A program made the position numbers and the translations under genes. Below, one piece after another: positions 1,363-22,038 of a stretch of DNA of 64,000 nucleotides. The notes below the pieces were generated by a model. It worked only from the letters and a program-made list of their open reading frames with translations. It ran no database searches and had not been told where the DNA came from. The stretch is from a phage, in the sequence record NC_103192.1; one strand, given 5' to 3'. Each line of letters opens with the position of its first letter. Positions within the stretch are counted from its first letter, which is position 1.

Positions 1363-2049
1363 ATGGCAGAGATTAAGTCGGATGTTAACCACATCCACAC
1401 TCTGCCAGATTTTGTTCAGGGGGGTCTTGATTACCTCCCTGGGGATTTTCTGGCTGAGAAGGTTAATTTAGTCACATTCTTAACCGTATACCTTAAAAGG
1501 TTGGAGAATGTTGATAAAATGCTGGTAGGCTTGGCTGAAGGAAGATTGCTTAACAATGCCAGCGGGAGATACCTTGACGAAGTTGGTAATCAACTTGGTA
1601 TTCTTAGGAATGGTCTTTCAGACGCGGATTTTCGTGCTACGCTGATTATTCAGCAGGCAGCATCATCAAGAGGTGGTACTCGCGAAGATGTCATCTCCAC
1701 CTTGCGACAATTGTTCGGAAGAGACAATTTCGATACGTGGAAAGGTGACAACTTTAGATTTGACATAAATATTAGAAAAACTTGCTTCGACATATTACAG
1801 TCCATCGATCAGATCTTAGATATGCTGCCATTGCCTTGTCATTTGCGTCTTACAGAATCGCAAGGGCAAGCTTTTGGTTTTGAAGGAGACTCTACAGCTC
1901 TTGGCTTCGGATCAGTGTGGGAAGAAAACCAGTTCGGAGTTGGTGGGCTGGCTACTTTGCTGTATGTTCCTGACGTAAGACCTGATTGGGACACCACAAC
2001 TATTTATTGTGAAAGTATTACAGTAAACGCAACTAGACAGGAGGGTTAA
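1363..2049 (+). CDS. virion structural protein (baseplate/tail module)
   Basis: 228-aa ORF tightly packed between structural ORFs; no diagnostic motif. Confidence 0.5.
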   Translation: MAEIKSDVNHIHTLPDFVQGGLDYLPGDFLAEKVNLVTFLTVYLKRLENVDKMLVGLAEGRLLNNASGRYLDEVGNQLGILRNGLSDADFRATLIIQQAASSRGGTREDVISTLRQLFGRDNFDTWKGDNFRFDINIRKTCFDILQSIDQILDMLPLPCHLRLTESQGQAFGFEGDSTALGFGSVWEENQFGVGGLATLLYVPDVRPDWDTTTIYCESITVNATRQEG

Positions 2050-4121
2050 TGGCAACAGCTGTTTTTAAACCTTACCGTGATTACTCTACGATGGCTGCAC
2101 GGTTTCATTACCGCACAGTTCAGGATACTGCAGTTCCAGGTAGGGATTATGATCATGTTGAGGGAGATGTAACTATCCCGGTTGGAGCAACCAGTATTGA
2201 GATCCCTGTAGAAATTGTTGACAAATTGCCAAACAGGTTGCCAAGAAGCTTCTTTATGGAGTTTTCATCAAACTCCCAAGGGGTTATGATTGGAACACAA
2301 AGAGCGAAATGTACAATAGTTTCAGATGAGAATCTTGACAGAATATCTTGGGATACCGTTGAGGAGAGAATGTTTCACCCAAGATATTGGGTTACAACCA
2401 CACAGCAGACTGAAAGCACCTGCATTGTTGCGGATAATAACTGCTGTATTAACCGTTTAGTGTCAAGAACATATGGAGGCATGGCTGGGTGCATTTGGGA
2501 AACAGTTGACAAGTATGACCATTTCGGCATTGGATTTGATGATCACTACGAGATGAGAAACACCAAGCTTTGGTTCAGAATGTCAATAACCAATGCCAGC
2601 AACTTCTCCACCCCTGAAAAGATGATTATGACTGTAGACCTTGTTGACGGCACAATCATCTATGTTCCTTTAGCTCAATATGCTGTCAGCATCTCAGAGG
2701 ATAAGAATGTTGCAGAAATTCATATTGATTTCGAGGACTGCGTCGGGATGGACCAGAACAACAATATGATGGGTGTTGATCCTCGGCAGGTGAGAAAGAT
2801 TTTAATACCGCTTATGCCTAAAGATTGGGTAAGTAATAGCACAGACCCAAGAACGGAAAATGTAGAGTGCGAGTTGCGTCTAGATCTGCTTCAGCCGGAC
2901 ACAGGCTGGAAAATGATGCAACTTAACAATATCCAGGTGAAAGAGCACGACGTCGGGATCTGCACAGCATATGACGATATGTGGAACGTATCCCCTTTAA
3001 GGGTGTTGAGCAATATCAAGCGTCTGGGCTATACCGGAACCATAAATCATTATGTTGGTATGAGTCATTATTATGACTACACATGGTCAGGAACCCAATG
3101 GTCTATAAACAAAACAGGGGCTCTAAACGCTGCAGCTTATAAATGGCATGATGATTTTATGTACAATGCCAAACGACATGACTTCGACGTTATGCAGTCT
3201 GTAAGCTTCGAGCTTTATAGCGATGCCTGTCCGTTGGAATGGACCCAGAGAGACTGGAACGATAACTACGCTAAAACAGGATATACACCTTGTAGCTACC
3301 TCCTGTCTCCAACCATTGAAGAGGGTATGAATTTCCTTACTGCAGTATTTAAGAATTTTGCATCAGCCGCTATGAGAAACAACCTGCCAGTGATTATGCA
3401 GGTTGGTGAACCGTGGTGGTGGTACAATACCGATACTCGTAGACCTTGTATTTATGATTACCCTACAAAGCAGGCGTTTTATGATGAGACAGGTGAGTAT
3501 GCATTAGATATTGGGACTATTGACGATCCTAAAACTGGTGGTGTTTACGACAAGTATGTAGCATTTTGTCGTGGTAAGCTTGGCGCTCGTATTGCGGCTA
3601 TTTCAAAGGCAATAAAAGCACACGCTGCATCGGCTCAGATGACAGCTTTACTGTTTTTCCCCACTATTATGGAAACCGAGCTTACGCAAAAACTGAACCT
3701 TGCTGACCAATATAAAAAGGAAGCAGGCGCTCTTGATTTCTTCTGCACTGAGTGCTACGATTGGGTGATGCAGGGAGGTATTGAAAAGGCAAAAGAGTCT
3801 GTAAACATACCTATCGTTAAGTTAGGTTGGAAACCGTCTGAAATACAATACCTTGCAGGGTTCGTTCCTAGCAAAGAGCTTGCTCCGGTATATGGCTACG
3901 ACCCAACCAGGAATTACCAAGAATTTTTATGGAGATGTATTTGCGGAAACATGGCAACCATAGAGTATAGATACCCTGAGGTAAAACAGTATGTGTGGGC
4001 ATACCCGCAAGTAATGTCTGACAGCATCACTGTTACCGCCAGAGATTCTACCGTGCTTCATATGGGACAGGTTGCTCTGAAAGGGTATGTAGAAGATGTT
4101 GTCCCGCCAGACTTCTCATAA
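2049..4121 (+). CDS. virion structural protein, tail/baseplate associated
   Basis: 690-aa ORF, start overlaps previous stop (ATGA-type coupling), directly upstream of tail fiber gene. Confidence 0.6.
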   Translation: MATAVFKPYRDYSTMAARFHYRTVQDTAVPGRDYDHVEGDVTIPVGATSIEIPVEIVDKLPNRLPRSFFMEFSSNSQGVMIGTQRAKCTIVSDENLDRISWDTVEERMFHPRYWVTTTQQTESTCIVADNNCCINRLVSRTYGGMAGCIWETVDKYDHFGIGFDDHYEMRNTKLWFRMSITNASNFSTPEKMIMTVDLVDGTIIYVPLAQYAVSISEDKNVAEIHIDFEDCVGMDQNNNMMGVDPRQVRKILIPLMPKDWVSNSTDPRTENVECELRLDLLQPDTGWKMMQLNNIQVKEHDVGICTAYDDMWNVSPLRVLSNIKRLGYTGTINHYVGMSHYYDYTWSGTQWSINKTGALNAAAYKWHDDFMYNAKRHDFDVMQSVSFELYSDACPLEWTQRDWNDNYAKTGYTPCSYLLSPTIEEGMNFLTAVFKNFASAAMRNNLPVIMQVGEPWWWYNTDTRRPCIYDYPTKQAFYDETGEYALDIGTIDDPKTGGVYDKYVAFCRGKLGARIAAISKAIKAHAASAQMTALLFFPTIMETELTQKLNLADQYKKEAGALDFFCTECYDWVMQGGIEKAKESVNIPIVKLGWKPSEIQYLAGFVPSKELAPVYGYDPTRNYQEFLWRCICGNMATIEYRYPEVKQYVWAYPQVMSDSITVTARDSTVLHMGQVALKGYVEDVVPPDFS

Positions 4122-4133
4122 TCAGGAGATAAA

Positions 4134-5174
4134 ATGTCAAAACCTAGTTTTCCATTAGAGATTTGGGCAGAGGAGGATCAGGTTCTGCCTAACACCCACA
4201 GACAGAACAGGCTACGCCCGATTGATGATTTGTGGAGAAAAGGTTGGGATCTTGGTCAAAAGCCATCCTGTGAAGAACTTAACTATATTTTCAATATGCT
4301 CGGGACTTGGGCAAAATACATTGCTGACGAGCAGATCCCCGCTCAAGAAGGCCGTTATCTGGTACGTGATAATAACTTGAGTGATCTTTTGAACATCCCT
4401 GTTGCCCGTAGAAACCTTGGTATTATTACTAAGGAAGAGGCAGACGCCAGGTATGTGAAAGTTGCAGGTGATACAATGACAGGCCCATTGGGTTTGCAAC
4501 GTATCAACTTTAAAGCTGCCGATACAGATAAGGCTTGGATAGAGACAACTATTGGCCCAGATAAGACAACCCTTGACTTTGGGTTAAGTGATAATATTGG
4601 GGCGTTCGATGATGGTGGCACATCTACAGTAGATGCGTTCCGTTGGAGATTCCAGCCAACTCAGCCGGACATTAACCCAGAGTTCACTCTGATGTACCTG
4701 AACGCAATCACGGCTAATCGTGCGTTGTTGAAAGTGGTGGGCAATGTTGAAGTTGTTGATAACATGCGATGTAATAACCTCACCATTAGCAGCACAGCAA
4801 CATTCACCAACTGCAATGTAGCTAGTCAGTTGACGGCTGGGTCAGTATATGTCAATGGTGGTGCAAGTTGTGACAGTATGGTTGTAAGAAGCCAGCATTG
4901 TGTTGTCGGTAACAGAAATGTGGTGCGCTCTGTGAATGGAGTGACGGCTAACGGCAACGGAGATGTAACGATCACCATCCCGCAGACAGGTGTACAGGAT
5001 ATCAGAATCGGTGCAAGACTTGTTGACGGTGTTTCTGAATCTCCGGTTCGCAACGGTTATGTTGTCACAGGTTGGCATTTTGGTGATAAAAAAGAGATGC
5101 GTGGTTCAACCTACTGGGCAGGACCTTTACAAAAACTTGTAAATGGTCAATGGATCACTGTTAATTATGCGTAG
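4134..5174 (+). CDS. tail fiber protein (paralog A)
   Basis: 346 aa; N-terminus MSKPSFPLEIW..., GDTMTGPL collar-like motif, C-terminus QKLVNGQWITVNYA shared with ORF 6189-7232. Confidence 0.75.
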   Translation: MSKPSFPLEIWAEEDQVLPNTHRQNRLRPIDDLWRKGWDLGQKPSCEELNYIFNMLGTWAKYIADEQIPAQEGRYLVRDNNLSDLLNIPVARRNLGIITKEEADARYVKVAGDTMTGPLGLQRINFKAADTDKAWIETTIGPDKTTLDFGLSDNIGAFDDGGTSTVDAFRWRFQPTQPDINPEFTLMYLNAITANRALLKVVGNVEVVDNMRCNNLTISSTATFTNCNVASQLTAGSVYVNGGASCDSMVVRSQHCVVGNRNVVRSVNGVTANGNGDVTITIPQTGVQDIRIGARLVDGVSESPVRNGYVVTGWHFGDKKEMRGSTYWAGPLQKLVNGQWITVNYA

Positions 5175-5188
5175 ATCGGAGGACTAGC

Positions 5189-5773
5189 ATGAAAATACTT
5201 CAAGAGTTTAAACTTTACCAGCCGGGATCTGGCGAATACTACACCAACAAGGAGACCAAGGAGCTGACTCCTCAGGAGGTTGAGGATTACACAGCATACA
5301 CTGGATATTTTTTACGTAATGATGATGGCGATTGGTATGTGCAATCACGAACACTGCGACAAGAAAATCCAGGCTGTATCTTCCTACTTGTTGACGAGAA
5401 GGGTATTCTTAAGACATCTACAGAAGAACCTGATGCCTTGTGGCCTGCTCCAGGTCTTCGTGTGGTTATCGCCAAAAAAGAAGAGGTACCAGAAAACATT
5501 ATGCTCCACCACGACGCTTTGCGTTTAGTTGGTGATGAATTTGTCACAGACAATGAATTCTTTGTTCAACAGGCAGAGGGTGTCATAGAGACAGAACTTG
5601 CTTGGGCTACTGCTAGAATTGGTGCCTATCAAGACATGATTGACCTTGAATACGATCTTACTGATGACCAAAAACGCAACATCAGAGATTTGAAAATGTA
5701 CAGGGTAAAACTTCTTGAAATAGATACATCTAAAGCCCCTGACATTTTCTTCCCGGAACGACCTACCCTCTAA
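5189..5773 (+). CDS. hypothetical protein, possibly tail fiber assembly/chaperone
   Basis: 194-aa ORF immediately downstream of tail fiber gene; function by position only. Confidence 0.45.
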   Translation: MKILQEFKLYQPGSGEYYTNKETKELTPQEVEDYTAYTGYFLRNDDGDWYVQSRTLRQENPGCIFLLVDEKGILKTSTEEPDALWPAPGLRVVIAKKEEVPENIMLHHDALRLVGDEFVTDNEFFVQQAEGVIETELAWATARIGAYQDMIDLEYDLTDDQKRNIRDLKMYRVKLLEIDTSKAPDIFFPERPTL

Positions 5774-5784
5774 GAGGAGGTGTT

Positions 5785-6099
5785 GTGGAGTTGGATTTGG
5801 CGGCATTGTACGGTATCTGCATGGGTACCGTTGTCCCGATCTGTGTATGGGCTTTCAACCAGTGGCACACCAAATGGAAAGGCATTTCCAAGAGGTTGGA
5901 TGAACTGGAGAAAGACCTCATCTTAGTGAAAAACAGTATGGTTACAAAAGATAAACTTGATTCCGTTATAGAGACCCGGTTAAGCAAGCTAGAGGCCGAT
6001 ATTAACGACCTTAAGCAGGATGTCAGGACAGATGTCTCCGGTATCCGAGCCGATGTACAAAAGATTTTGCACATGCTCGTAGAGCATAGTAAAAGGTAA
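5785..6099 (+). CDS. small membrane-anchored coiled-coil protein
   Basis: GTG start 5 nt after AAGAGGAGG; hydrophobic N-terminal segment then heptad-like charged region. Confidence 0.5.
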   Translation: MELDLAALYGICMGTVVPICVWAFNQWHTKWKGISKRLDELEKDLILVKNSMVTKDKLDSVIETRLSKLEADINDLKQDVRTDVSGIRADVQKILHMLVEHSKR

Positions 6100-6188
6100 A
6101 CAAAGGTCAGAACGGAAAGGACTCCGTTCTTGCATTTTGTTCCCTAAAGTGTTAAAATAGTCCTAAGGAATTTTCTCAGGAGAACGTG

Positions 6189-7232
6189 ATGACTAAACCA
6201 GTTATCCCTCTTGATATTTGGGCCAATCAGGATGTTGTGCTTGAAAATACGGGAGAGTTGAATAAGTCTCAACCAAAAAAAGAAGAGAGATTGAAAGGTT
6301 GGGATATGACACAAAGAGTGGCATGTGAAGTTGTTAACTTTGAACTTCACATGCTTTCTGCGTGGTTAAAGCATTTAACAGAAGATGTTGTCCCAGGATG
6401 GGATAATAGATTCTTAAGGGTCACTAATAATCTAGCAGACGTTCCAGACAAAGCTGCTGCACGTCAAGTTCTCAATGTATACTCGCCTGAAGAAATGGAT
6501 GACCTTTATGTTGACAAGACTGGAGACACAATGATCCAGACTCAAACTTTAGGTCTTCAAAGAATTGAGTTTGCATCTGCGTCAACAGACAATGCGGCGA
6601 TATACACCACCATAACTCCAGACAAGACGATGATGGATTTCTGGATTATGGACAACATTGGTGGCGCTGACGGCACAGACCTTGATGATCCTTCTCACCA
6701 AATAGACGGTTTCCGTTGGAGATTTCAACCTTCTGGTGGGCAGCCTGTGTTTTCGGCTATGAAGCTCAATGCTATAACTGCCAACCGTGCAAGACTGGCT
6801 ATCCAAGGAAATCTTGAATGCAATGATGCAAAAAGCTCCTCTGCAAATGCCAATGCGGTAACGATACCAAGAGCCACTGTTAATGGACAACAATCCTGCG
6901 GCAGCGCTCAAATAGGTGGAAGAGTAGATTGTAACGATAAAACCGCCAGGGGTCAATATGCAACAGTTGGTGGAAGAAACGTGGTCCGCAGGGTAAATGG
7001 TAGTAGCGCAGATAGCAGTGGTAACCTTACCATCCCTATGCCTAGTAGAGGTGTTGAGGATGTAAGGATAGCAAACCGTTTCAGAACCACCTACAGAGAA
7101 TCGAGAGTATACCCTGGGCATGTAATGTGCTCCGGCAATTACGCCTATAAACACCCGTATCAGGGCGACTATTGGACTGGTGCTATTCAAAAATTTGTAA
7201 ACGGTCAATGGATCACTATATCTTATGCTTAA
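6189..7232 (+). CDS. tail fiber protein (paralog B)
   Basis: N-terminus MTKPVIPLDIW... parallels paralog A, GDTM motif, C-terminus QKFVNGQWITISYA; ATG at 6189 preferred over in-frame GTG at 6186. Confidence 0.75.
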   Translation: MTKPVIPLDIWANQDVVLENTGELNKSQPKKEERLKGWDMTQRVACEVVNFELHMLSAWLKHLTEDVVPGWDNRFLRVTNNLADVPDKAAARQVLNVYSPEEMDDLYVDKTGDTMIQTQTLGLQRIEFASASTDNAAIYTTITPDKTMMDFWIMDNIGGADGTDLDDPSHQIDGFRWRFQPSGGQPVFSAMKLNAITANRARLAIQGNLECNDAKSSSANANAVTIPRATVNGQQSCGSAQIGGRVDCNDKTARGQYATVGGRNVVRRVNGSSADSSGNLTIPMPSRGVEDVRIANRFRTTYRESRVYPGHVMCSGNYAYKHPYQGDYWTGAIQKFVNGQWITISYA

Positions 7233-7241
7233 AGAGGGTAA

Positions 7242-7508
7242 ATGAAATTAACTCAGTTTTTATGGGGACTGGTTGCAGCATCTGATGACCCTACAAAAGT
7301 GTCCCAATCTAAGCTATGGTCAAACATAGGCATGGCAGTGATGACTGGGGTGTTTATTCATATGGGGTATAATGATACGCTTCCTGAATGGTATGCGTGG
7401 ATATACGCACCTTCGGTAGCTTGCCCCCAGCTTATTAGCAAATTCATCTCGCTCCGGTGGGGTTGCCAACACCCTGACCACGTTAAAAACGAAGAGCAAA
7501 AAGCTTAA
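7242..7508 (+). CDS. hypothetical protein
   Basis: 88-aa ORF between tail fiber genes. Confidence 0.45.
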   Translation: MKLTQFLWGLVAASDDPTKVSQSKLWSNIGMAVMTGVFIHMGYNDTLPEWYAWIYAPSVACPQLISKFISLRWGCQHPDHVKNEEQKA

Positions 7509-7517
7509 GGAGAAATC

Positions 7518-9263
7518 ATGGCGCAAGACATGACAAGCTTCGAGCAGGCGGTAGATCAAGTAATTGTTGATTCTGAACGTTTGCACTTGATTGTCAACGG
7601 TAACGCTGTGGATGAAGTTGTCGTAGAGGATGGGACCACTATCCCTACGGTACGAAAAGCCATGCTTGACACCCTTTATTTTAAAACGCCGCCGATCCCT
7701 TGGGCGTATGGTGCATCCACAACAGTTTTTAACCAGTTGTATGAGTTTAAAGGAGATACGGGCACTCAGTGGTGGTACGCCCCAGCAGCATCAAAATCTA
7801 ACCCAGTTAGGATGCCAGCAGATCCTTCAGAATCTCCGAACTGGAGATTATATACCGATTCTGCAGTAATGGCAAAATACTACGCAAAACTTAACAGTCC
7901 AAGGTTCGAAGGTGACCCGAGAGTACCTACACCTCCAATGGACGATAAGTCCGAGTCTATAGCAAACACAGAGTTTGTTGTTGACTATGTGGATAGTATA
8001 TTCAAAGCCATGGAGGGGATGAAAGTAACTGTAGGGTCTTTGGTGGTAAAAGGTCTTACAGAACTTGCTAACACCATAGTTGGTGGCACCCTTACCTTGC
8101 ACGGGCCTGTTAATGGAGCGGATTCTACTGCACGCTTCAGGAACCTAATCCTTACTGCAAATACTTCTACATTGACTTTTGCGTGGAGCGATCCTAAGCA
8201 TGCAGACTGGAGAAGCACAGAGCTGCAACCTCATGAAGTATCCACCCACAGAGTTATAGCTGACACTATAACTTCTGGGAAACCAGTGGCTAATAACAAC
8301 GATGTGCATTTTGATGGTCTAGGTAATAACTTTTTTGACTACGTGTACATTCGTGGTAATGCCATGAAGGCAGCCACCGAACCGACATTGCAGGTTGATG
8401 GGACCACTAGGGTTAAGAACCTTGAGGTGACAGGCACCGTTACAGGGATAACCTACTCTGTAGATGGCACCATGATCTACCCTAGCTATATTGAAAGCAC
8501 GGGAGATGCACTGATCAATGGAGATTTAGAGGTTGGCGGGTCTGTAGTCATTCGTGGCACAGCATCTGTCCAGAACATATCTTTAAATACTCTGAGGGTG
8601 AATGAGCGTGCCACTTTTGAAGGAGAGGGGCTTACAGCCAACAAAGGTGTAATTACCGAGCTGACAACCACCACTCTAACTGCAACAACTGCAAACTCTG
8701 AAAACTGCAACGTTACCAGAAACTTGCAGGTAAATGGAGATGTTAGTTTAAACACAGCAGGGACGGGCACTACCCACCTTCACAACCTTGAAATATCAGG
8801 TACAGTGACTGGGTGGCTGCCAGACTTCTCTAATGTCAACTTTGTCTGTAATGGCATTAACTCCAGTGGCAAGATAACCACCTCTCAAGAAATTGAAGCT
8901 GGTAAAACTATTACTGCCCCTGCTTTCCATGCAGGGAAGGTGGAGTTTGACTTAGAGGAGGCTGACGCATCTAGTGGGACATGGACACCTAACGGGCAGG
9001 CCAATATGTATGTTGTCCACGCGAAAGGGGATTTTACAATAGGGCAATGGCCTGGAACATCGGCTGAAGATAAACCTTACCCGTTCACTGCAATCATCTA
9101 TGTCATTCAGGATGCTGTAGGCCACAACGTGACCTTACACGATAAATATGCCATACTGTCGGCTACTCCTGTTATTAACAACAAAGCCAACAGTGTCACC
9201 TTGCTACAATTGACATATTGTGGTGTTGGTGATATTGTGGATGTGGTTATTGCACAACGTTAA
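7518..9263 (+). CDS. tail fiber / tailspike-like protein
   Basis: 581 aa, repetitive T/G/N/V-rich segments (e.g. NLEVTGTVTG, NLEISGTVTG) typical of fibrous beta-structure proteins. Confidence 0.65.
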   Translation: MAQDMTSFEQAVDQVIVDSERLHLIVNGNAVDEVVVEDGTTIPTVRKAMLDTLYFKTPPIPWAYGASTTVFNQLYEFKGDTGTQWWYAPAASKSNPVRMPADPSESPNWRLYTDSAVMAKYYAKLNSPRFEGDPRVPTPPMDDKSESIANTEFVVDYVDSIFKAMEGMKVTVGSLVVKGLTELANTIVGGTLTLHGPVNGADSTARFRNLILTANTSTLTFAWSDPKHADWRSTELQPHEVSTHRVIADTITSGKPVANNNDVHFDGLGNNFFDYVYIRGNAMKAATEPTLQVDGTTRVKNLEVTGTVTGITYSVDGTMIYPSYIESTGDALINGDLEVGGSVVIRGTASVQNISLNTLRVNERATFEGEGLTANKGVITELTTTTLTATTANSENCNVTRNLQVNGDVSLNTAGTGTTHLHNLEISGTVTGWLPDFSNVNFVCNGINSSGKITTSQEIEAGKTITAPAFHAGKVEFDLEEADASSGTWTPNGQANMYVVHAKGDFTIGQWPGTSAEDKPYPFTAIIYVIQDAVGHNVTLHDKYAILSATPVINNKANSVTLLQLTYCGVGDIVDVVIAQR

Positions 9264-9270
9264 TATATCT

Positions 9271-9297
9271 GACCGCTCCTGACGGGGCGGTTTTCTT
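9271..9297 (+). terminator. stem-loop plus T-run (partial terminator/attenuator)
   Basis: accgctcctgacggggcggt followed by ttttctt right after the stop of 7518-9263. Confidence 0.5.
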
Positions 9298-14957: not shown

Positions 14958-14987
14958 AAAAAGGGGCCAAACGGCCCCTTTCTTTTT
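14958..14987. terminator. bidirectional intrinsic terminator
   Basis: aaaaaggggccaaacggcccctttcttttt: GC stem flanked by A-run and T-run between convergent gene blocks. Confidence 0.7.
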
Positions 14988-14991
14988 ATAA

Positions 14992-15192
14992 TTAGTAGTA
15001 TTCCCAACACGACCCATCTTCAGACGGCTGGACACGCTTACCTTCATGATCGACATAGGTGTAACCACAGCCTTCACAAATAACAGGTGCTGCATAGCCT
15101 TCCTTCCACTGATCCTCAGTGATCAATCCTTTCAGATCTCCGCAGTCACTACCAAACAACTCTTCAGAACAGTCTTTACAAAAATCAGCCAT
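14992..15192 (-). CDS. small Cys-rich protein
   Basis: 66-aa ORF with paired CxxC-like cysteines (CKDC...CEGCG). Confidence 0.5.
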   Translation of the reverse strand: MADFCKDCSEELFGSDCGDLKGLITEDQWKEGYAAPVICEGCGYTYVDHEGKRVQPSEDGSCWEYY

Positions 15193-15261
15193 CTCTATCA
15201 GTCTCCATATTTAACCAATCTATATTACATATTGCCGAAGAAACAGTATTTCATTTCATCA

Positions 15262-15480
15262 TCACAGATCTCCAACAACTTCCCAAATACCCCAGTGAGC
15301 ATCTATATCCTTGATAAAGTATCTTTCTCCACGGTTTGTCCACACACCTATCCCAACTTTACCATCTATCCCATTGTATACATCTGCCTCATACTCTTTG
15401 CCCGGTGTAAAGTGTACACCCATCATAAGGGCTGTTATTCCATTAGGATTTTTAAATTTAACAAATTTTACTTTGCTCAT
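15262..15480 (-). CDS. hypothetical protein
   Basis: 72-aa ORF in minus-strand gene array. Confidence 0.5.
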   Translation of the reverse strand: MSKVKFVKFKNPNGITALMMGVHFTPGKEYEADVYNGIDGKVGIGVWTNRGERYFIKDIDAHWGIWEVVGDL

Positions 15481-15481
15481 A

Positions 15482-15811
15482 TTACTTAATCCTTGCAGTT
15501 ACAGTAGCGCTATACCCTATGTAGTTATGAGACATAAAGAATGTAAGCCCTTTAAGTTCAGGATTCTTTCTAAGAAATCGTTTCAATTTTCGAATGCAAT
15601 TAACACCATGATCATAATTTGAGAAATTAAATTTAATACCCTGCTCCATCATAGTACACACTTCTTCATGGGTATGCCATTGTCTATCGTGGTCACAAAA
15701 CCAGTAACCAATACCTTCTTTTTCTTGGATATGCAATCCCCAAAATACTTTATGCATTGGATATTTTGGTTTTCTACCATGATAATGTAGTTTAATATTC
15801 ACATGTGCCAT
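15482..15811 (-). CDS. hypothetical protein
   Basis: 109-aa ORF, His/Cys-containing, no assignable motif. Confidence 0.5.
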   Translation of the reverse strand: MAHVNIKLHYHGRKPKYPMHKVFWGLHIQEKEGIGYWFCDHDRQWHTHEEVCTMMEQGIKFNFSNYDHGVNCIRKLKRFLRKNPELKGLTFFMSHNYIGYSATVTARIK

Positions 15812-15979
15812 TTTTTGTTACTCCGTTCTGTATCTGTGATAATGAGAATAGCAAACTGGGGTGTGTGCTGTCAACAACATTTTTAAGCGTTTTGGGGAAG
15901 TTTTTTGAAAGGTGGGTGTAATCACAAGAGAGGGTGGAGTTGTTGAAGGCACAGGCCTCTTTTGAGGCCTTAAAATCGA

Positions 15980-16360
15980 TTATGACACTTTGACGTAGCG
16001 CTCTGACAGAGCTGGAAAGCCAAAAGCAGTACCTATACTACCGTATGCTACCCACCATTGAAGTTCATCGTGACACCATTTTCCGATCAGGAAGGTGCTG
16101 GGGTAGCGGGTCAGTATTTTGGCATAAGCTTTAGGATCTGCATCCTCTGGGATAATGATACTTGGAACATCTTTGTTATGACCACAGCAGCAGTTTAGAG
16201 TTTTCAATCCTGCCGCCCATAGACTCATGATAGGCTTAGCCATGCACTTATCAAGGCACACACGTTTTTTGCCGTCACGGAGCTTTTTAGGCACATCAAC
16301 GATAACATTTTGATGCTTGGCACCTTTCACTTTCCAATTATAGGATTTACACTTGCACAT
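15980..16360 (-). CDS. hypothetical Cys-rich protein
   Basis: 126-aa ORF with CCCGHN cluster; function unknown. Confidence 0.5.
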   Translation of the reverse strand: MCKCKSYNWKVKGAKHQNVIVDVPKKLRDGKKRVCLDKCMAKPIMSLWAAGLKTLNCCCGHNKDVPSIIIPEDADPKAYAKILTRYPSTFLIGKWCHDELQWWVAYGSIGTAFGFPALSERYVKVS

Positions 16361-16390
16361 TTAATCAGTCTCCATCTAGAAAGCAATACT

Positions 16391-16561
16391 TTACTTAAAG
16401 TCTTTATCACCTGCCACGATTGCATGAATCCACTCATTGTGATGCTCAATAGCGGTGAGATGTAACATGATGTAGTGATCGTCATTGCCAAACATGATAT
16501 GATAGGCTTTGGCAGCATTTTGATATAACTTCCACATCAGGTAATGATATCTTCGCCTCAT
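16391..16561 (-). CDS. small hypothetical protein (56 aa, below ORF-track cutoff)
   Basis: ATG 5 nt downstream of stop of 16567-17037 with GGAG upstream; translation MRRRYHYLMWKLYQNAAKAYHIMFGNDDHYIMLHLTAIEHHNEWIHAIVAGDKDFK. Confidence 0.4.
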   Translation of the reverse strand: MRRRYHYLMWKLYQNAAKAYHIMFGNDDHYIMLHLTAIEHHNEWIHAIVAGDKDFK

Positions 16562-16566
16562 GGCTC

Positions 16567-17037
16567 TTACTCCGGTTCAGGATCTGGGTAATCTTCGATA
16601 ATAAAGGGCCATCCGTTCCGCTTAGCCGCAGACTTATACTCGATCTCCTTCATTGCAAACTCTAACTGATTCTTAGCCGGAATACATGCCGGAGAATCAT
16701 CAATCCAGATATCTGGGTAGATATCAAACTGCGCCAGATAGGCTGCCTTCTGGACACCACCAGTATAAAACACACCAACATCGAGATCCTTACGCCAATA
16801 CTCAATGTCTACATTATCTTGAGTAATGAATCGGAAAGTCACAAGGTATACTGTCCACCCTTCCTTTTTCAAGTCCCTAATCAGGCGGGAGAAGATGAAA
16901 GGACTCGCATTAAATGTTCCATCAAAGTCAATGGCAATGATGTGTGTGCCGTGGCGTGTCTCATATGGATTGCTTGTGGTAAGATTGCTGTAGTTAAAAG
17001 GAACTTCTTCCCCGCAGTAGCTGTAGTCCATATTCAC
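16567..17037 (-). CDS. HAD-superfamily phosphatase (5'-nucleotidase-like)
   Basis: motif I IIAIDFDGT (DxDGT) near N-terminus. Confidence 0.6.
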   Translation of the reverse strand: MNMDYSYCGEEVPFNYSNLTTSNPYETRHGTHIIAIDFDGTFNASPFIFSRLIRDLKKEGWTVYLVTFRFITQDNVDIEYWRKDLDVGVFYTGGVQKAAYLAQFDIYPDIWIDDSPACIPAKNQLEFAMKEIEYKSAAKRNGWPFIIEDYPDPEPE

Positions 17038-17309
17038 ACCTTCTCGTTGATAAATTTACGGGCGGTTTGGTGAGTTGTTTCTGCTGTCTTCAGAATGATA
17101 TTAATCTTATTGTCAAGATCATTCATCTCTGCAGTTAATTCAGGAATCTCTCCGGCATGCATAGTGAAATCATACATAGACATGCCCAGAATCTCATTGA
17201 TTCGGCGGTTGCATTCTGCAGCACGCTGGTTCATTTTCCAAGCTAACACCAGAGCCTCTTGCGTAGCCTCCAGTGCAAAGTCTAATACGTCAGCTTCTTC
17301 TTTCGTCAT
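17034..17309 (-). CDS. hypothetical protein
   Basis: 91-aa ORF, stop/start overlap with next gene. Confidence 0.5.
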   Translation of the reverse strand: MTKEEADVLDFALEATQEALVLAWKMNQRAAECNRRINEILGMSMYDFTMHAGEIPELTAEMNDLDNKINIILKTAETTHQTARKFINEKV

Positions 17310-17364
17310 CTCAGTCTCTCTTGTTGTATTGTTGGTAGGTGCATGAACACCTTATATCTCACTT

Positions 17365-17931
17365 TTATTCAAACTGCAATAGCAAGTCCACCACCGCACT
17401 AGGCCTGTCAACAAATTCCCCAGGCCCACATGCCCATAGAGGGTATCCATCAACATACCGCCATATCCAACCTGCAGTGTGAAGCTCAAGCAGGGCAGTG
17501 CCGTCCTTACTGTCAACCACCCTTTCCCACAGTGTTGGGCAGCGAAGCTTGAGAATCGGGTCCCCGCCCTTATACCCGTCCATGTAGATACCCATTGCAA
17601 AGTTCAGCATCATCTTTTTGTGCACTGATCTTTTACTGAGGGTGCTCATCACTTCCTCTTTGTGAATGTTTGTAAGCTTCTCTTTGGCTACCCGCAGATC
17701 ATTGCAACCATTGTTCAGCAGATCTTCCAGACACTTGATCCGAAGGTCGTGAATGTCTTTGTCGTGTACCGTTGGCACAGGGTCGTAGCGGTATAGCACT
17801 GTTGATACAAGGTTGCTCGGGTGTGGGTCTGACAGCAACCCATAACCCCAATACTCCTCTGTATCTGAAAGGACAAGACACCCAATGTCTCTGTCAAGCT
17901 TTCCTGTGTTGTAAGCCACATTGACCGCCAT
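17365..17931 (-). CDS. hypothetical protein
   Basis: 188-aa ORF. Confidence 0.55.
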   Translation of the reverse strand: MAVNVAYNTGKLDRDIGCLVLSDTEEYWGYGLLSDPHPSNLVSTVLYRYDPVPTVHDKDIHDLRIKCLEDLLNNGCNDLRVAKEKLTNIHKEEVMSTLSKRSVHKKMMLNFAMGIYMDGYKGGDPILKLRCPTLWERVVDSKDGTALLELHTAGWIWRYVDGYPLWACGPGEFVDRPSAVVDLLLQFE

Positions 17932-17933
17932 GA

Positions 17934-18179
17934 CTATAGCTCCACTAGCAAAGTGCTTTCAAAGTGCCGTTCATGCAAACCATTGTAAGGGACCACTTCT
18001 ACAACGCCATCACGGACATATGGGGCCATCATAGTGGTATAATCTCCAAACGGGTTGGTATTGTCACTAACCACAACCACCTTCTGCCCTTCCTTGGCAG
18101 AGTGCCAAATAGATCTGCACTTCATCAGGTGTTCGAGAGCTCCAGGTAAAATTTTGTTACGTTCTTTACGAGTCTTCAT
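17934..18179 (-). CDS. hypothetical protein
   Basis: 81-aa ORF. Confidence 0.5.
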   Translation of the reverse strand: MKTRKERNKILPGALEHLMKCRSIWHSAKEGQKVVVVSDNTNPFGDYTTMMAPYVRDGVVEVVPYNGLHERHFESTLLVEL

Positions 18180-18625
18180 AACAGGTATAGCTCCTTATGA
18201 AAGTGATCTTTTAATTTCTCACTGAGAAACTTCTTGATACCTTCCTCTAAAGTGTTTTCGATGTAGTCCAGCTTAACTGCTTCGATGGACATATCATAGA
18301 TCGCCAGCTCTAAGCTGTCAAGTCCCATCATAGCATGAACCATAAGATTTTCATCTTCAGATACATTCAGGGGGCTTCCTATAACATCTGGAGGCAGAAT
18401 AGTTTCCCAATTATTCTGGGTGGTAGTTCTCCCTCCCTCTACTTTACGGCGCAGTTCGAATGTGTTCTTAGTGTAGAACACTTCATAAGAAACGATACGA
18501 CTGTCGCTCTCATAATAAACGAAGTTCAGGTAGGAGCCTAGCCGCAGTCGGCAAACTTCCACCCCAAACCATTGTTTCTTATAAGAATTCAGGCTAATGC
18601 TGTCGCATTCACGTTTGCTCAACAC
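18176..18625 (-). CDS. hypothetical protein
   Basis: 149-aa ORF overlapping the neighbouring gene by 4 nt. Confidence 0.55.
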   Translation of the reverse strand: MLSKRECDSISLNSYKKQWFGVEVCRLRLGSYLNFVYYESDSRIVSYEVFYTKNTFELRRKVEGGRTTTQNNWETILPPDVIGSPLNVSEDENLMVHAMMGLDSLELAIYDMSIEAVKLDYIENTLEEGIKKFLSEKLKDHFHKELYLL

Positions 18626-18641
18626 GGCTCTCTCCTTCTTG

Positions 18642-18875
18642 TTAATCTTCGTAAATAATGATTTCTGCTTTAGGTTTTCGTGCTTTCAGGTCCAGCTCTA
18701 TCCAGTGCACCATCGCTGTTTCAAGAAAAACAGCCTGGATGCATCCGTCTTCAGCGTGCCCTACCAGCATAACAAGATCTTCACATTCATCATCTGCATC
18801 ACGGACATACAAGATCTCTCCAGATTCAAAGTCTTTCACAACCTGATTGCTGGATAATTTACGAATTTTTGCCAT
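18642..18875 (-). CDS. hypothetical protein
   Basis: 77-aa ORF. Confidence 0.5.
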   Translation of the reverse strand: MAKIRKLSSNQVVKDFESGEILYVRDADDECEDLVMLVGHAEDGCIQAVFLETAMVHWIELDLKARKPKAEIIIYED

Positions 18876-18876
18876 A

Positions 18877-19140
18877 TCAGAAACCCTCTAAAAAGCTCTT
18901 GTAGAAAATAATCTCAGTATCCACACCAGTCACGATCTTGTCGTTCCAGATTTCATCTGTAAGATAGGTGTCAAAACGCAGCACCTGTGTGGTATTGTCA
19001 CACATCCACTCGGCTGTGACCATGGCAAAAATCTTGGCATCTTCATTATCTGGTGTGAATGTTACCACCTCGCCGCACTTAAACTTTTCGATAGGTTGAG
19101 TGTTAGCTTTCGGTTCTGCGATAGTGATTTTCGTGGTCAT
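18877..19140 (-). CDS. hypothetical protein
   Basis: 87-aa ORF. Confidence 0.5.
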   Translation of the reverse strand: MTTKITIAEPKANTQPIEKFKCGEVVTFTPDNEDAKIFAMVTAEWMCDNTTQVLRFDTYLTDEIWNDKIVTGVDTEIIFYKSFLEGF

Positions 19141-19406
19141 TACTCTTCCTCCATAGTTTCACCAAATACTTCGATACGAGCATCGAGCTCGGTTGCTTTC
19201 AGCTCACCAACAAAATCTTTTAGTTCTTTCTCGTCCAGATCGTAAGCCCACACACAAGAAGAACATGCAGATTTCACAATCAGCAGCGTAGATACACGAC
19301 CTGACTCCGTGATCATGCTCACAATGGTTCCTACAGGGAACGTGTTGATAGCTTTTTTAACTGGGCGTTCAGCTTTGATTACTACCTCTGTTGCCATAAA
19401 TAACAT
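19140..19406 (-). CDS. hypothetical protein
   Basis: 88-aa ORF. Confidence 0.5.
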   Translation of the reverse strand: MLFMATEVVIKAERPVKKAINTFPVGTIVSMITESGRVSTLLIVKSACSSCVWAYDLDEKELKDFVGELKATELDARIEVFGETMEEE

Positions 19407-19412
19407 CCTCTC

Positions 19413-20894
19413 TTATTTAGCGTACCCGATCAATTCTACAGTTTTCCCAAAGCTTGGGATATAATTTTTATTATACCCTTCGGTGAGAACCCATAAAGTA
19501 TCGTACTTTTTCCACTTGTTGTCAACAACCTTTTGTTCAAAGTTGTGCTCAAAGTAGAGGTCGGTCAGGACGATGACATCTTTTGCATTTGGTATGTTAG
19601 CGTCCAGATACTCGAACACGCAAGCGGCTGTTGTGCCCCATGTTGAGTGGACCTCGTAGTTGATCATCTCGTCGATGTTCCCGCGAGTGTATACTTTAAC
19701 CTCTCCAACCTCAGTTGACCAACAGAACATCGTAACCTTGAACTCTTTATACAGATTGCACAACCCAGTGATCTCATTGAACATTTTCTTTAAAGTTCTT
19801 TGTGAGATCGATCCAGAAACGTCTAAAGCCACCACAATATCTATAGTGTTTTCCGGATTACGACCAGGAACAACAACGTGCTGATTCTTGTTTATAGCTC
19901 CAACTTTTCGCATTGTGCTGGTCAAAGACCCAGATCGGCGACCAGGTTTTCTGTAGGTTAGTTCAGCCTTTCGTTTAGACAGCATACGTTGCTTAATGAT
20001 GTCTATATAATTGATTACAGGCTTGCCTCTGTTTTTGACAAACTCGCGCACAGCCTCAGGGCAACGACCTCCGGAAGCTTGCATTGCTGCTTCCAACATG
20101 TCACCAGAGTCCTGCATGGCCTGATCTTTATCAGATTGACTGATCACGGGTTGTGGCTGATCATACCCCATAGCCTTTCCAAGATCGTCACTTGTGCCAC
20201 CGTTCCCACTCATGTGATCATCGGTTTGTCGTTTATCTCCTTGAGAGTTCTCGCCTTTACCGTTCTTACTTTTACCACTATTCTGATCTCTTTGCTTATC
20301 AAGAACTGCATAGACGTTCTCAGCAATCCATCCATGGAACCTCATGTCACAGTAGCAACTAGCTAAGAAGCCAAAAGGCTTACCTTTTACGAACGTAGTG
20401 CTTTTCCCCTTCGGAAAGAAAACACAAGGGGGCTTGCTAAAGTCAACCACAAGACCTGTGTTGATAACATGATCACAGGCAATATTGAACAGTTCCGGCT
20501 CAAAGCTTTTACCACGGACCAGATGATCGCAGATAATATGCCCCACTTCATGCGATAGAAGAAAGGCCACCTCTTTCACAGATTTGGGGGAATAGAAAAC
20601 CTCAGCCATCTCAAACTGCTCGTCAGTCAGAGATGCTTTAAGAATGGTTTTGCGCTCATCAGCCAGTCCCATAATGAACTCGGGACTGTAATAAATGCGT
20701 TTATGGTCTGTTGCCATGGTGGAGCACCATGTGTGGTTTTCTACGAACTGCAGCCCTGACAATAGTGTGCCATAAAACGGCAGTTTTTCAAGAAGATACA
20801 TGCGTGCTGCCTGCAGCATTCGCAAGGCGTCATCTTTTTGTGCGGCAATGATTTCTGAACTTCTGCTATCCATTAAAACTCCAGAAGGGGCCAA
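19413..20894 (-). CDS. metallopeptidase-like / von Willebrand factor A domain protein (CobT-like)
   Basis: HEVGHIICDH (HExxH) in N-terminal half; vWA MIDAS-type start IVVALDVSGSIS in C-terminal half. Confidence 0.75.
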   Translation of the reverse strand: MAPSGVLMDSRSSEIIAAQKDDALRMLQAARMYLLEKLPFYGTLLSGLQFVENHTWCSTMATDHKRIYYSPEFIMGLADERKTILKASLTDEQFEMAEVFYSPKSVKEVAFLLSHEVGHIICDHLVRGKSFEPELFNIACDHVINTGLVVDFSKPPCVFFPKGKSTTFVKGKPFGFLASCYCDMRFHGWIAENVYAVLDKQRDQNSGKSKNGKGENSQGDKRQTDDHMSGNGGTSDDLGKAMGYDQPQPVISQSDKDQAMQDSGDMLEAAMQASGGRCPEAVREFVKNRGKPVINYIDIIKQRMLSKRKAELTYRKPGRRSGSLTSTMRKVGAINKNQHVVVPGRNPENTIDIVVALDVSGSISQRTLKKMFNEITGLCNLYKEFKVTMFCWSTEVGEVKVYTRGNIDEMINYEVHSTWGTTAACVFEYLDANIPNAKDVIVLTDLYFEHNFEQKVVDNKWKKYDTLWVLTEGYNKNYIPSFGKTVELIGYAK

Positions 20895-20902
20895 CGGCCC
20901 CT
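20886..20902. other. GC stem-loop between two minus-strand genes
   Basis: aggggccaacggcccct; no T-run on the minus strand, so more likely a processing/stability hairpin than a terminator. Confidence 0.4.
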
Positions 20903-20906
20903 GTCA

Positions 20907-21962: not shown

Positions 21963-22038
21963 AAACGTGTTGACTTTACTCTAAATCCACGATATAGTGC
22001 ACCCATTCTAAAGAAAACGAACACAGGATCACTTAATC

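Follow-up and report, generated by a model that had tools for sequence, protein, structure and literature searches.

A pair of short-tail-fibre paralogs in the baseplate region of an rV5-like Vequintavirus

A pair of short tail fibre (STF) proteins is already known from Vequintavirus as gp33/gp30 of phage rV5, published by Kropinski 2013 and Maffei 2021. In its description of the pair, Kropinski 2013 gives an identity of 42.3% and regards the proteins as T4 gp12-like, on the basis of HHpred similarity to 1PDI (T4 gp12) for both of them. The passages of Maffei 2021 that concern short fibres assign two STF paralogs and a chaperone, homologous to Mu GpS/GpU, to the Vequintavirinae sensu stricto, and a single-copy STF to phi92-like phages. 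In phage phiTE, residues 3-92 of the STF bind wedge 1, a single-copy wedge protein. The Mu-like fibre III of phi92 (gp147, six trimers) binds the bottom of the wedge protein gp145 and rearranges on contraction. The chaperone of phage Mu (Tfa), which is needed for fibre trimerisation, attaches to the tip of the fibre and is retained in virions.

The window analyzed here, a stretch of 64,000 nucleotides from sequence record NC_103192.1, belongs to a Vequintavirus, an rV5/FV3-like E. coli myophage with 97.7% DNA identity to phage FV3. The region under study is most likely the Vequintavirus short-tail-fibre locus, coding for two complete paralogs of a trimeric short tail fibre of the Mu GpS type, here named STF1 and STF2. 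The order of the locus is wedge genes, a 690-aa protein, STF1, the tail fibre assembly protein (Tfa), a 104-aa ORF, STF2, an 88-aa ORF and a 581-aa fibre, and this order is the same in FV3, AlexBoehm and the divergent contigs L008-L010. Its features, by position in the window, are:

1363..2049, + strand: baseplate wedge protein, 228 aa, rV5 gp35 (PHROG 4056 'baseplate protein', E=2e-103)
4134..5174, + strand: STF1, 346-aa short tail fibre, ortholog of rV5 gp33 / FV3 ORF033 / BASEL bas56_0034 (PHROG 4465)
5189..5773, + strand: Tfa, tail fibre assembly protein, 194 aa, rV5 gp32 (Pfam PF02413 Caudo_TAP, E=1e-11; PHROG 136, E=1e-36)
5785..6099, + strand: 104-aa ORF, rV5 gp31 (PHROG 5345, unknown function)
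6109..6130, + strand: terminator-like hairpin, then TTGCATTTT (terminator scan)
6137..6173, + strand: predicted late promoter of STF2, rV5 'P030' (core TGTTAAAATA at 6150-6159; matches rV5 Table S4)
6189..7232, + strand: STF2, 347-aa short tail fibre paralog, ortholog of rV5 gp30 / FV3 ORF030 / bas56_0037 (PHROG 4465)
7242..7508, + strand: 88-aa ORF, rV5 gp29, annotated 'membrane protein' (PHROG 1322)
7518..9263, + strand: tail fibre, 581 aa, rV5 gp28 (PHROG 4549, E=7e-250)
9271..9292, + strand: intrinsic terminator, rV5 t028 (terminator scan: 9-bp stem, 6 GC pairs, T tail)

The orthologs in rV5 (gp33/gp30), FV3 and Bas56 are 95-100% identical in protein sequence, and gene order, Tfa and the 104-aa and 88-aa neighbours are shared. 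There is no difference of substance from these pairs, and the present locus is the same thing in another isolate. In FV3 and the BASEL phages, the orthologs of both genes carry the annotation tail fibre or short tail fibre. What is added here to the published descriptions is an asymmetric divergence of the docking domain, the replacement of a 157-aa gene, a conserved hairpin and promoter, and a homogenisation of the tips in a metagenomic relative.

The two fibre ORFs of the preliminary description are real, at 4134-5174 (346 aa) and 6189-7232 (347 aa); the start of STF2 is the conserved ATG at 6189, whereas the GTG at 6186 is not conserved in the relative L008. BLASTP aligns STF1 with STF2 over the whole length at 43% identity (E=4e-95), and both are full-length matches to the PHROG 4465 profile of 342 positions (STF1 residues 1-346, E=6.3e-171; STF2 residues 1-347, E=6.5e-164). 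With a similarity far above chance, sequence comparison identifies them as true paralogs. The shared motifs reported earlier were all found, namely PLEIWA/PLDIWA at residues 7-12, GDTM at 112-115 and the C-terminal QK(L/F)VNGQWIT(V/I)(N/S)YA. The accompanying picture of conserved ends around a divergent centre needs to be redrawn. Conservation as described holds for the N-terminal ~30 residues (50%) and the C-terminal 16 (69%), but the rest of the ends does not stand out, and the central region was wrongly said to differ: residues 101-200, at 58% identity overall and up to 60-67% in windows of 30 residues, form the longest well-conserved block. The least similar segments are 41-100 (30%), 201-250 (21%) and 291-330 (33%), and the alignment contains four indels (+2, +4, -2, and -6 then +4 residues). 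The duplication appears to be old, because third-codon-position identity between STF1 and STF2 is only 15-52% throughout.

A phmmer search of the PDB matched residues 1-108 of STF1 to the phiTE short tail fibre (9cuy_c, E=2.2e-19) and residues 286-343 to the Mu tail fibre S (5yvq_A 440-501, E=2.5e-6). Residues 1-83 of STF2 likewise matched the phiTE STF (9cuy_c, E=1.5e-8), and the same search returned no sequence-level match of the STF2 tip to Mu gpS. On the phiTE side, the matched part is residues 1-111. When low-confidence AlphaFold monomers were submitted to Foldseek, the top and sole significant match was 5yvq_A for both STF1 (pLDDT 61, E=4.3e-8) and STF2 (pLDDT 58, E=2.6e-6). With models this poor the fold matches carry little weight; a Mu GpS-like head is supported for STF1 by the sequence match, and for STF2 the model hints weakly at the same fold. 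The earlier view of the two as tail fibre paralogs of the receptor-binding type was thus borne out, with distal tips (the 291-330 segment) that differ in this lineage.

The part shared with phiTE (9cuy/9mjn), the N-terminal ~100 residues, is the one that docks there on the single-copy wedge protein, whereas the rest of the phiTE fibre, a flagellotropic shaft and head built of a coiled coil plus Ig domains, has no relation to STF1/STF2. The phiTE STF and phi92 gp147 are alike in being downward-pointing trimers, gp147 being predicted to be Mu-like; its homology to STF1/STF2 is taken from the literature and from an aligned Phapecoctavirus homolog, not from an alignment of gp147 itself. Each of these two phages has one such fibre, in contrast to two here. 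In comparison with Mu GpS and GpU/Tfa (5yvq), the C-terminal head is homologous, a Caudo_TAP gene lies immediately 3' of STF1 and a similar receptor class, LPS core glucose, has been proposed. The docking domain, however, is of the phiTE/Vequintavirinae type, one chaperone would serve two fibres, and where the S/S' tips of Mu alternate by inversion of the G segment, the present locus has two complete genes fixed on the same strand and no invertase. T4 gp12, a baseplate-bound trimer that binds the LPS core for irreversible adsorption, is a functional analogy with a different docking domain, and no gp12 chain was among the PDB phmmer matches of STF1 or STF2 at E<=1. T4 has a single gp12, and its chaperone is gp57A rather than a Caudo_TAP protein.

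Both fibre genes occur in every Vequintavirus record returned (~116 genomes) at 95-100% protein identity, and both are also kept, intact, in the divergent lineages L008-L010. Values of dN/dS (0.02-0.06 over both fibres) indicate strong purifying selection, which excludes the pseudogene outcome that had been named as a possible refutation. STF1 (dN/dS = 0.02-0.03) shares 46-51% identity with the orthologs present as single copies in Av-05, Seunavirus and Mydovirus, which occupy the same place upstream of Tfa, compared to 37-42% for STF2. Because of this closer similarity and shared position, STF1 is best regarded, by sequence, as the ancestral, canonical ortholog. STF2 (dN/dS = 0.04-0.06) has evolved about twice as fast.

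Such near-invariance does not bear out the proposal of a host-range expansion module. The statements on allelic variation in Maffei 2021 agree, in that the two STF genes are without considerable variation, which maps instead to the three largest lateral fibres. The STF pair thus probably represents conserved genus-wide tail parts and not a variable element setting strain-level host range. According to the receptor data given in Maffei 2021, none of the Vequintavirinae tested infects waaC or waaG mutants of the LPS core, and phage LL12 likewise needs waaC and waaG. The possession of two fibres therefore confers no visible redundancy on K-12, as loss of either waaC or waaG abolishes infection by all tested Vequintavirinae. 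Most likely both proteins are constitutive LPS-core-binding short fibres.

With respect to the virion, the published record is inconsistent: Kropinski 2013 names gp30, gp32 and gp33 in its main text among the proteins detected; 19 loci of its Table S5 include no entry of 346, 347 or 194 residues, and the entries of Table S3 for these genes mark 'MS evidence' for gp34 and gp41 and not for gp30 or gp33. Cryo-EM density for this fibre class is known from two BASEL Vequintavirinae, Bas49 and Bas54, at low resolution and with one STF model fitted, so that the paralogs are not distinguishable.

The paralogs also differ in the wedge-docking domain. Seven residues in the first 62 aa, P19, R28, I30, W34, G41, Y51 and Y62, are 85-100% conserved in all other family members and all kept by STF1 (7/7), whereas the STF2 clade has replaced every one (0/7), with Q28, R34, F51 and H62 fixed and the PIDDLW motif lost. 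The assumption that the two fibres are mounted on the same baseplate socket is therefore doubtful. A candidate for the docking platform is the 228-aa rV5 gp35, whose gene (1363..2049) lies directly 3' of a Baseplate_J-like wedge gene and is 63% identical to its Av-05 ortholog. It is probably the counterpart of phiTE wedge 1 and phi92 gp145, an equivalence drawn purely from gene order.

One tentative explanation for the retention of two copies is that neither paralog can stand in for the other and that each has a docking position or orientation of its own (giving 12 short-fibre trimers, or one inner and one outer set), with the STF2 N-terminus re-specialised for a second site and both fibres needed for adsorption or triggering (AND logic). 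This would fit the asymmetric divergence of the STF2 docking domain, subsequently fixed, and the lack of such changes in STF1. Segment 41-100 follows the same pattern, differing between the classes (30-37% identity) in three lineages and being conserved within each class. STF2 also has a separate predicted late promoter, and the phi92 wedge gp145 offers two fibre attachment points, upper and bottom. In the metagenomic relative L008, the STF1 and STF2 tips are identical (100% nucleotide identity over ~30 codons), which argues that the copies differ in something besides the receptor; the tips there can be read as homogenised, by gene conversion in our view. Since the L008 paralogs share one tip, two-copy retention appears to be independent of differing tips. 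Nevertheless, a second STF-type density has never been reported in the low-resolution cryo-EM of Bas49/Bas54, the locus contains one wedge-1-type gene only, and the replacements in STF2 could represent co-adaptation, or drift then purifying selection. It is possible, though less likely than not, that STF2 is a neofunctionalised copy and no spare receptor-binding option, with a docking domain re-specialised for another baseplate position or partner to give two non-redundant short-fibre sets, both of them required in irreversible adsorption and triggering. Tip specificity would then be secondary, because tips can be homogenised as in L008.

It seems unlikely that STF1 and STF2 are interchangeable alternatives competing for the same six sockets, either one sufficing (OR logic) and the two together widening host range, e.g. 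to different LPS core types. In its remarks on the pair, Kropinski 2013 did propose two LPS chemotypes, and the tips do differ in this lineage, but a single LPS-core defect (waaC, waaG) stops all tested Vequintavirinae, the genes hardly vary among phages of different host range, where the large lateral fibres vary instead, and L008 retains two copies with the same tip. As regards docking, across 32 family members 11 residues are invariant in the first 59 positions and both N termini keep all of them and match the phiTE STF docking domain, and phiTE and phi92 show one STF docking site per wedge, whereas the seven fixed replacements in STF2 fall at otherwise conserved docking residues.

Co-assembly of STF1 and STF2 into heterotrimeric fibres is very improbable. 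The paralogs are most alike in the central shaft block (58%, 101-200) and are also conserved at the very C terminus, from which Tfa drives trimerisation; the four indels would nonetheless break the three-fold register, heads and N termini are divergent, the genes apparently lie in separate transcription units and the solved homologs, Mu S and phiTE STF, are all homotrimers. The notion that one copy (most likely STF2) is silent or decaying, or that the pair acts as a phase-variable switch like the invertible G segment of Mu/P1, can be set aside at the sequence level as next to impossible, for although STF2 evolves at about twice the rate of STF1 and lacks a chaperone gene of its own, it is under purifying selection, has an intact ORF in all Vequintavirus records returned as well as in three divergent lineages, and has a conserved promoter motif and ribosome-binding site, and a switch of the Mu G segment/P1 C segment type needs opposite orientation, flanking inverted repeats and an invertase, whereas both genes here are on the + strand, two short inverted repeats at the locus (17-18 nt, 78-82%) are at chance level and the annotations of the FV3 and AlexBoehm regions show no Gin/Cin-type invertase or other recombinase among the genes of the locus.

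As for its origin, STF2 is probably an old duplicate that took the place of a membrane-protein gene between two conserved small ORFs, the STF2 slot being filled by a 157-aa membrane ORF in relatives with one fibre. It would then have gained its own late promoter, behind the conserved hairpin, and evolved faster, with replacements becoming fixed in its docking domain and, within this lineage, in its tip. The sister relationship of the STF1 and STF2 clades has 58% bootstrap in a neighbour-joining tree, a moderate support with which horizontal acquisition of STF2 from a relative is a possible alternative.

A small ORF follows each fibre gene, as noted earlier, in a literal sense, but the two sides are not equivalent: STF1 is followed by Tfa and then the 104-aa ORF, and STF2 by the unrelated 88-aa ORF. 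Because relatives with a single fibre gene carry both the 104-aa and 88-aa ORFs, the fibre gene alone was apparently duplicated, not a module of fibre plus partner, and a role of the small ORFs as fibre-specific partners is not supported. The 104-aa ORF has an N-terminal TM segment (hydrophobic residues 3-24) and a coiled-coil-like remainder; with orthologs at the same position after Tfa in Av-05 and GAP31 (tblastn, E about 1e-17), it is a conserved neighbour rather than a fibre partner. The 88-aa ORF is 50-52% identical to its Av-05 and GAP31 orthologs (E about 1e-27) and has zero nonsynonymous differences from AlexBoehm or FV3; despite its 'membrane protein' annotation, no strong TM segment was found in a simple hydropathy scan. 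Tfa is the sole Caudo_TAP chaperone in the locus (PF02413, residues 121-192), encoded immediately downstream of STF1 (5189-5773) and not of STF2. Among relatives its C-terminal half is conserved and its N-terminal half variable, the same pattern as described for Mu Tfa.

The hairpin at 6109..6130, whose pairing is maintained by compensatory changes in FV3, L009 and L008, is predicted to be a terminator-like element closing the STF1-Tfa-104aa segment; it is absent from the predicted rV5 terminator list. The core of the promoter behind it, TG(T/C)TAAAATA, is invariant in the window, AlexBoehm, FV3, L009 and L008, and the STF2 ribosome-binding site is conserved alongside it; STF2 is thus predicted to have its own conserved late promoter (P030). 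The terminator at 9271..9292 has the sequence of rV5 t028 (Table S4) and is predicted to end the STF2-88aa-581aa unit. If P030 and t028 are used, the 581-aa fibre would be co-transcribed with STF2. This fibre is 41% identical to its Av-05 ortholog, and its orthologs in L008-L010 have the PF26208/PF26209 Phage_phiTE_241 N and C domains.

In the most likely model, each paralog consists of the N-terminal ~100 residues homologous to the wedge-docking part of the phiTE STF, a conserved middle with NLxD...AR.NL / GDTMTG motifs and a Mu-S-like C-terminal head. STF1, whose gene lies among the baseplate genes and immediately precedes that of the sole Tfa chaperone, and STF2 would both be expressed late and fold from the C terminus, probably with the help of a shared Tfa that recognises the conserved C-terminal motifs. 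Both would be incorporated into the virion as downward-pointing fibres of the baseplate, and would bind conserved LPS-core sugars, leading to irreversible adsorption and helping to trigger contraction.

The STF1/STF2 locus itself is textbook for the genus, and the finding is real but ordinary. Phages of the rV5 type are common therapy and biocontrol candidates against E. coli O157 and other pathogenic E. coli, and the fibres that determine host range matter for their engineering. The evidence speaks for the published view, in which the two short fibres serve as a conserved device of terminal adsorption and the large lateral fibres set host range. It also raises the question of why this genus has two short fibres when every close relative has one, and the asymmetry of the docking domains, together with the homogenised tips in one relative, provides a concrete lead on the retention of two fibres.

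A megablast search with window positions 4000-7600 returned 116 phage records, and in 113 of them the match spans 80% or more of the query. Almost all belong to Vequintavirus (the rV5-like myophages of E. coli), and FV3 is the best match at 97.7% identity. The two ORFs that the preliminary description placed at 4134-5174 and 6189-7232 exist at those coordinates, and the motifs quoted for them are found in both proteins. FV3 annotates both as tail fiber protein (ORF033 and ORF030), and in BASEL phage AlexBoehm both carry the label short tail fiber protein and the first is followed by a tail fiber chaperone. The rV5 gene table (Kropinski 2013) lists gp33 (346 aa), gp30 (347 aa), the Tfa protein gp32, the 104-aa membrane protein gp31 and the 88-aa ORF gp29. 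The same study gave the gp33/gp30 pair an identity of 42.3% and proposed two LPS chemotypes, and Maffei 2021 reported a pair of paralogous short tail fibres together with a chaperone, with homology to Mu GpS/GpU. The pair in the window is this rV5 gp33/gp30 pair and was already known; the preliminary description was right to see duplicated fibre genes. The features of the locus are as follows.

4134-5174, first short tail fibre (STF1), 346 aa, rV5 gp33 ortholog
5189-5773, Tfa chaperone, 194 aa, rV5 gp32
5785-6099, 104-aa ORF, rV5 gp31
6109-6130, terminator-like hairpin (sequence-based) followed by TTGCATTTT, between the 104-aa ORF and STF2
6189-7232, second short tail fibre (STF2), 347 aa, same strand as STF1, rV5 gp30 ortholog
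7242-7508, 88-aa ORF, rV5 gp29
7518-9263, 581-aa fibre, rV5 gp28
9271-9292, predicted strong terminator, same as rV5 t028

STF1 and STF2 align over their full length by BLASTP (153 of 356 positions identical, 43%, E=4e-95) and each matches PHROG 4465 from end to end; by sequence they are unquestionably homologous. The description of conserved ends and a divergent middle is partly inaccurate, since the two proteins, aligned globally, share their best long block in the centre, at residues 101-200 (58% identity, up to 67% in 30-residue windows), and the poorest segments are 41-100 (30%), 201-250 (21%) and 291-330 (33%). At the ends, identity is 50% over the first ~30 residues and 69% over the last 16. 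The paralogs also differ by an insertion of 2 residues after GDTM and by one of 4 residues (GTDL). Identity at third codon positions is 15-52% along the whole length, which indicates that synonymous sites are saturated and that selection acting on an old duplicate has kept the amino acids conserved. These third-position values, and a 63-nt repeat common to the 3' ends of both genes that is only 78% identical, rule out recent gene conversion as the source of the conserved ends in the window.

Vequintavirus records carry the gene at two places by tblastn, with each paralog 95-100% identical, and Avunavirus, Seunavirus, Mydovirus, Phapecoctavirus and other relatives carry it at one. More divergent lineages have the two-fibre arrangement too: the Logan contigs L009 and L010 (identity to the window 88% for STF1, 77% for STF2) and the metagenome contig L008 (71% and 50%). 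With the single-copy orthologs STF1 shares 46-51% identity as well as its place upstream of Tfa, whereas STF2 is only 37-42% identical to them. In a neighbour-joining tree the STF1 and STF2 clades are neighbours with a bootstrap of only 58%, because the shaft of the Phapecoctavirus outgroup is too divergent. Duplication within the lineage followed by acceleration of STF2 would be the simplest reading of these sequences; acquisition of STF2 from a relative is a less simple origin, though still a viable one. An invertible-segment switch is ruled out, since, unlike in the Mu-type system, the two fibre genes lie on the same strand, without meaningful inverted repeats and without an invertase among the genes of the locus.

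A small ORF does follow each fibre gene, as had been noted, but the two are unrelated: directly after STF1 lies a Caudo_TAP Tfa (Pfam, E=1e-11) and after STF2 the 88-aa protein, so that the locus has one chaperone gene for two fibres. The 104-aa ORF, next after Tfa, has one N-terminal hydrophobic segment. Pfam and NCBIfam gave no matches for STF1, STF2 or the 104-aa, 88-aa and 157-aa ORFs, and for the 104-aa and 88-aa ORFs there were no Pfam matches even below the gathering score. We compared the single-fibre relatives Av-05 (Avunavirus), GAP31 with a related Salmonella phage (Seunavirus-like) and BIS47 (Mydovirus), and in all of them the gene order is STF, Tfa, 104-aa ORF, 157-aa polytopic membrane ORF, 88-aa-type ORF (shorter in BIS47, at 56 aa) and 581-aa-type fibre. 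Orthologs of the window's 104-aa and 88-aa ORFs were detected in Av-05 and GAP31 (tblastn, E ~1e-17 and ~1e-27), and their presence in single-fibre relatives indicates a duplication confined to the fibre gene. The 157-aa ORF lies between the 104-aa and 88-aa ORFs at these positions.

L003:5949-6422, 157-aa polytopic membrane ORF, Av-05
L005:5961-6434, 157-aa polytopic membrane ORF, GAP31
L006:5847-6320, 157-aa polytopic membrane ORF, BIS47

No counterpart of this ORF occurs in the 64-kb window, where STF2 sits exactly in its slot. Three genes of membrane-protein type (104-aa, 157-aa and 88-aa) cluster inside the tail-fibre locus of the single-fibre relatives. The 104-aa (5785-6099) and 88-aa (7242-7508) ORFs are extremely conserved, the latter with zero nonsynonymous differences from two genomes at dS 0.10-0.18. 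The remainder of the 104-aa protein after its N-terminal TM segment is coiled-coil-like, a layout suggestive of an i-spanin-like or a tethered coiled-coil protein. Upstream of STF1, window 2049-4121 encodes a 690-aa protein whose domains are Calx-beta, NCTSP_N and an NCTSP TIM barrel (E=1e-79), an N4 gp65-like protein reported as an NGR glycan binder in Vequintavirus; of the single-STF relatives compared, Av-05 alone has it.

The pairing of the hairpin at 6109-6130 is kept through compensatory substitutions in FV3, L009 and L008, and the element TG(T/C)TAAAATA that comes next, at 6150-6159, is invariant in all five sequences compared. This element is the late promoter P030 predicted by MEME for rV5; the hairpin is absent from the published rV5 terminator list. 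With a P030-like motif upstream and the next predicted strong terminator at 9271-9292, STF2 probably heads its own late unit, predicted to comprise STF2, the 88-aa ORF and the 581-aa fibre, with STF1 and Tfa in the baseplate block. A scan for sigma-70 promoters performed no better than chance, with 31 found and 27 expected, and the window yielded no tRNA genes. Further along, downstream of a bidirectional terminator at 14960-14981, a minus-strand gene block extends over ~15000-22000, where GC skew reverses, and includes a DUF2201 metallopeptidase/VWA-like protein (19413-20894).

Comparison with AlexBoehm and FV3 gave dN/dS of 0.02-0.03 for STF1 and 0.04-0.06 for STF2, in the same range as the flanking structural genes. 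Judged by this constraint both fibre genes are functional, and at the sequence level values of 0.02-0.06 rule out either copy being a pseudogene or silent. On virion proteomics, the main text of Kropinski 2013 and its supplement (Additional files 3 and 5) disagree on the detection of gp30, gp32 and gp33. According to the main text, virion proteomics found all three. The MS table totals 19 proteins; 18 come from loci 61, 60, 53, 52, 133, 79, 152, 82, 34, 237, 41, 62, 235, 106, 37, 1, 27 and 228, and the nineteenth is presumably gp64, given in the main text with 36.3% coverage. No entry of 346, 347 or 194 residues occurs in the whole table file, which places gp30, gp32 and gp33 outside it, and the gene table marks MS evidence for gp34 and gp41, not for gp30 or gp33. 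Cryo-EM of Bas49 and Bas54 has density for the fibre class at 7-9.5 A, a resolution at which the paralogs are not separable.

In PDB sequence searches, STF1 matched the phiTE short tail fibre (9cuy) over residues 1-108 (E=2e-19) and Mu tail fibre protein S (5yvq) over residues 286-343 (E=2.5e-6); STF2 matched phiTE over residues 1-83 (E=1.5e-8) and had no sequence match to Mu S. AlphaFold2 monomer models built on a 32-sequence alignment and used solely for a coarse Foldseek check were poor, as expected for intertwined trimers, with a secondary-structure layout common to both. At a mean pLDDT of 61 (STF1) and 58 (STF2), the only significant PDB Foldseek match of each model was 5yvq_A (E=4e-8 and 2.6e-6, respectively). 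The phiTE cryo-EM structure shows the STF trimer attached to wedge 1, a single-copy protein, through a joint made of STF residues 3-92. In the phi92 structure (2026), six trimers of the Mu-like fibre III, gp147, sit on the bottom of wedge protein gp145, pointing downward and rearranging upon contraction. By analogy the fibre pair may work like T4 gp12; membership in the gp12 family is undetectable by PDB sequence search. Mu Tfa, whose variable N-terminal domain binds the fibre tip and which stays in virions, resembles the window's Tfa, the N-terminal half of which is variable among relatives and the C-terminal half conserved. The STF1 tip (residues 287-344) is 57-59% identical to fibre tips of ~52-kb Salmonella/E. 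coli phages (BP63-like) and is also like that of a Phapecoctavirus fibre, although the shaft of the latter is unrelated. These matches exemplify tip-module exchange; no comparable tip-only matches were among the STF2 matches listed.

The preliminary description had both fibres mounted on a shared baseplate socket as a host-range expansion module. Of the first 59 positions, 11 hold the same residue in all 32 family members compared, and STF1 and STF2 keep every one. P19, R28, I30, W34, G41, Y51 and Y62 are 85-100% conserved in STF1, all single-copy orthologs and phiTE, yet all seven are replaced throughout the STF2 clade, usually by residues fixed within it (Q28, R34, F51, H62). The reverse test found no STF1-specific replacements at otherwise conserved docking-domain residues. 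Segment 41-100 is 30-37% identical between the classes in three lineages, yet conserved inside each class. From these sequences, a shared socket for STF1 and STF2 appears doubtful.

The two paralogs of L008 bear on the host-range claim.

L008:7001-8056 and L008:4921-5961, paralogous fibre genes on ENA metagenome contig KUNK20-1 scaffold_729

They have 100% nucleotide identity over ~30 tip codons, of STF1 type, and about 50% elsewhere, which reflects either a gene conversion in the recent past, from STF1 into STF2, or a chimeric assembly. If not an assembly artefact, the identical tips imply that two copies are kept even with the same tip, and the N-terminal half would then be what distinguishes the paralogs. 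According to published genetics, none of the Vequintavirinae tested succeeds on waaC or waaG mutants, and the STF genes are without considerable allelic variation, whereas the three largest lateral fibres vary. Paralogous short fibre genes thus stand, and the docking changes, the L008 tips, the waaC/waaG failure and the STF invariance speak against a host-range module of a simple either-or kind. The host-range interpretation of the preliminary description finds partial support. The one lead worth following is the apparently re-specialised docking domain of STF2.
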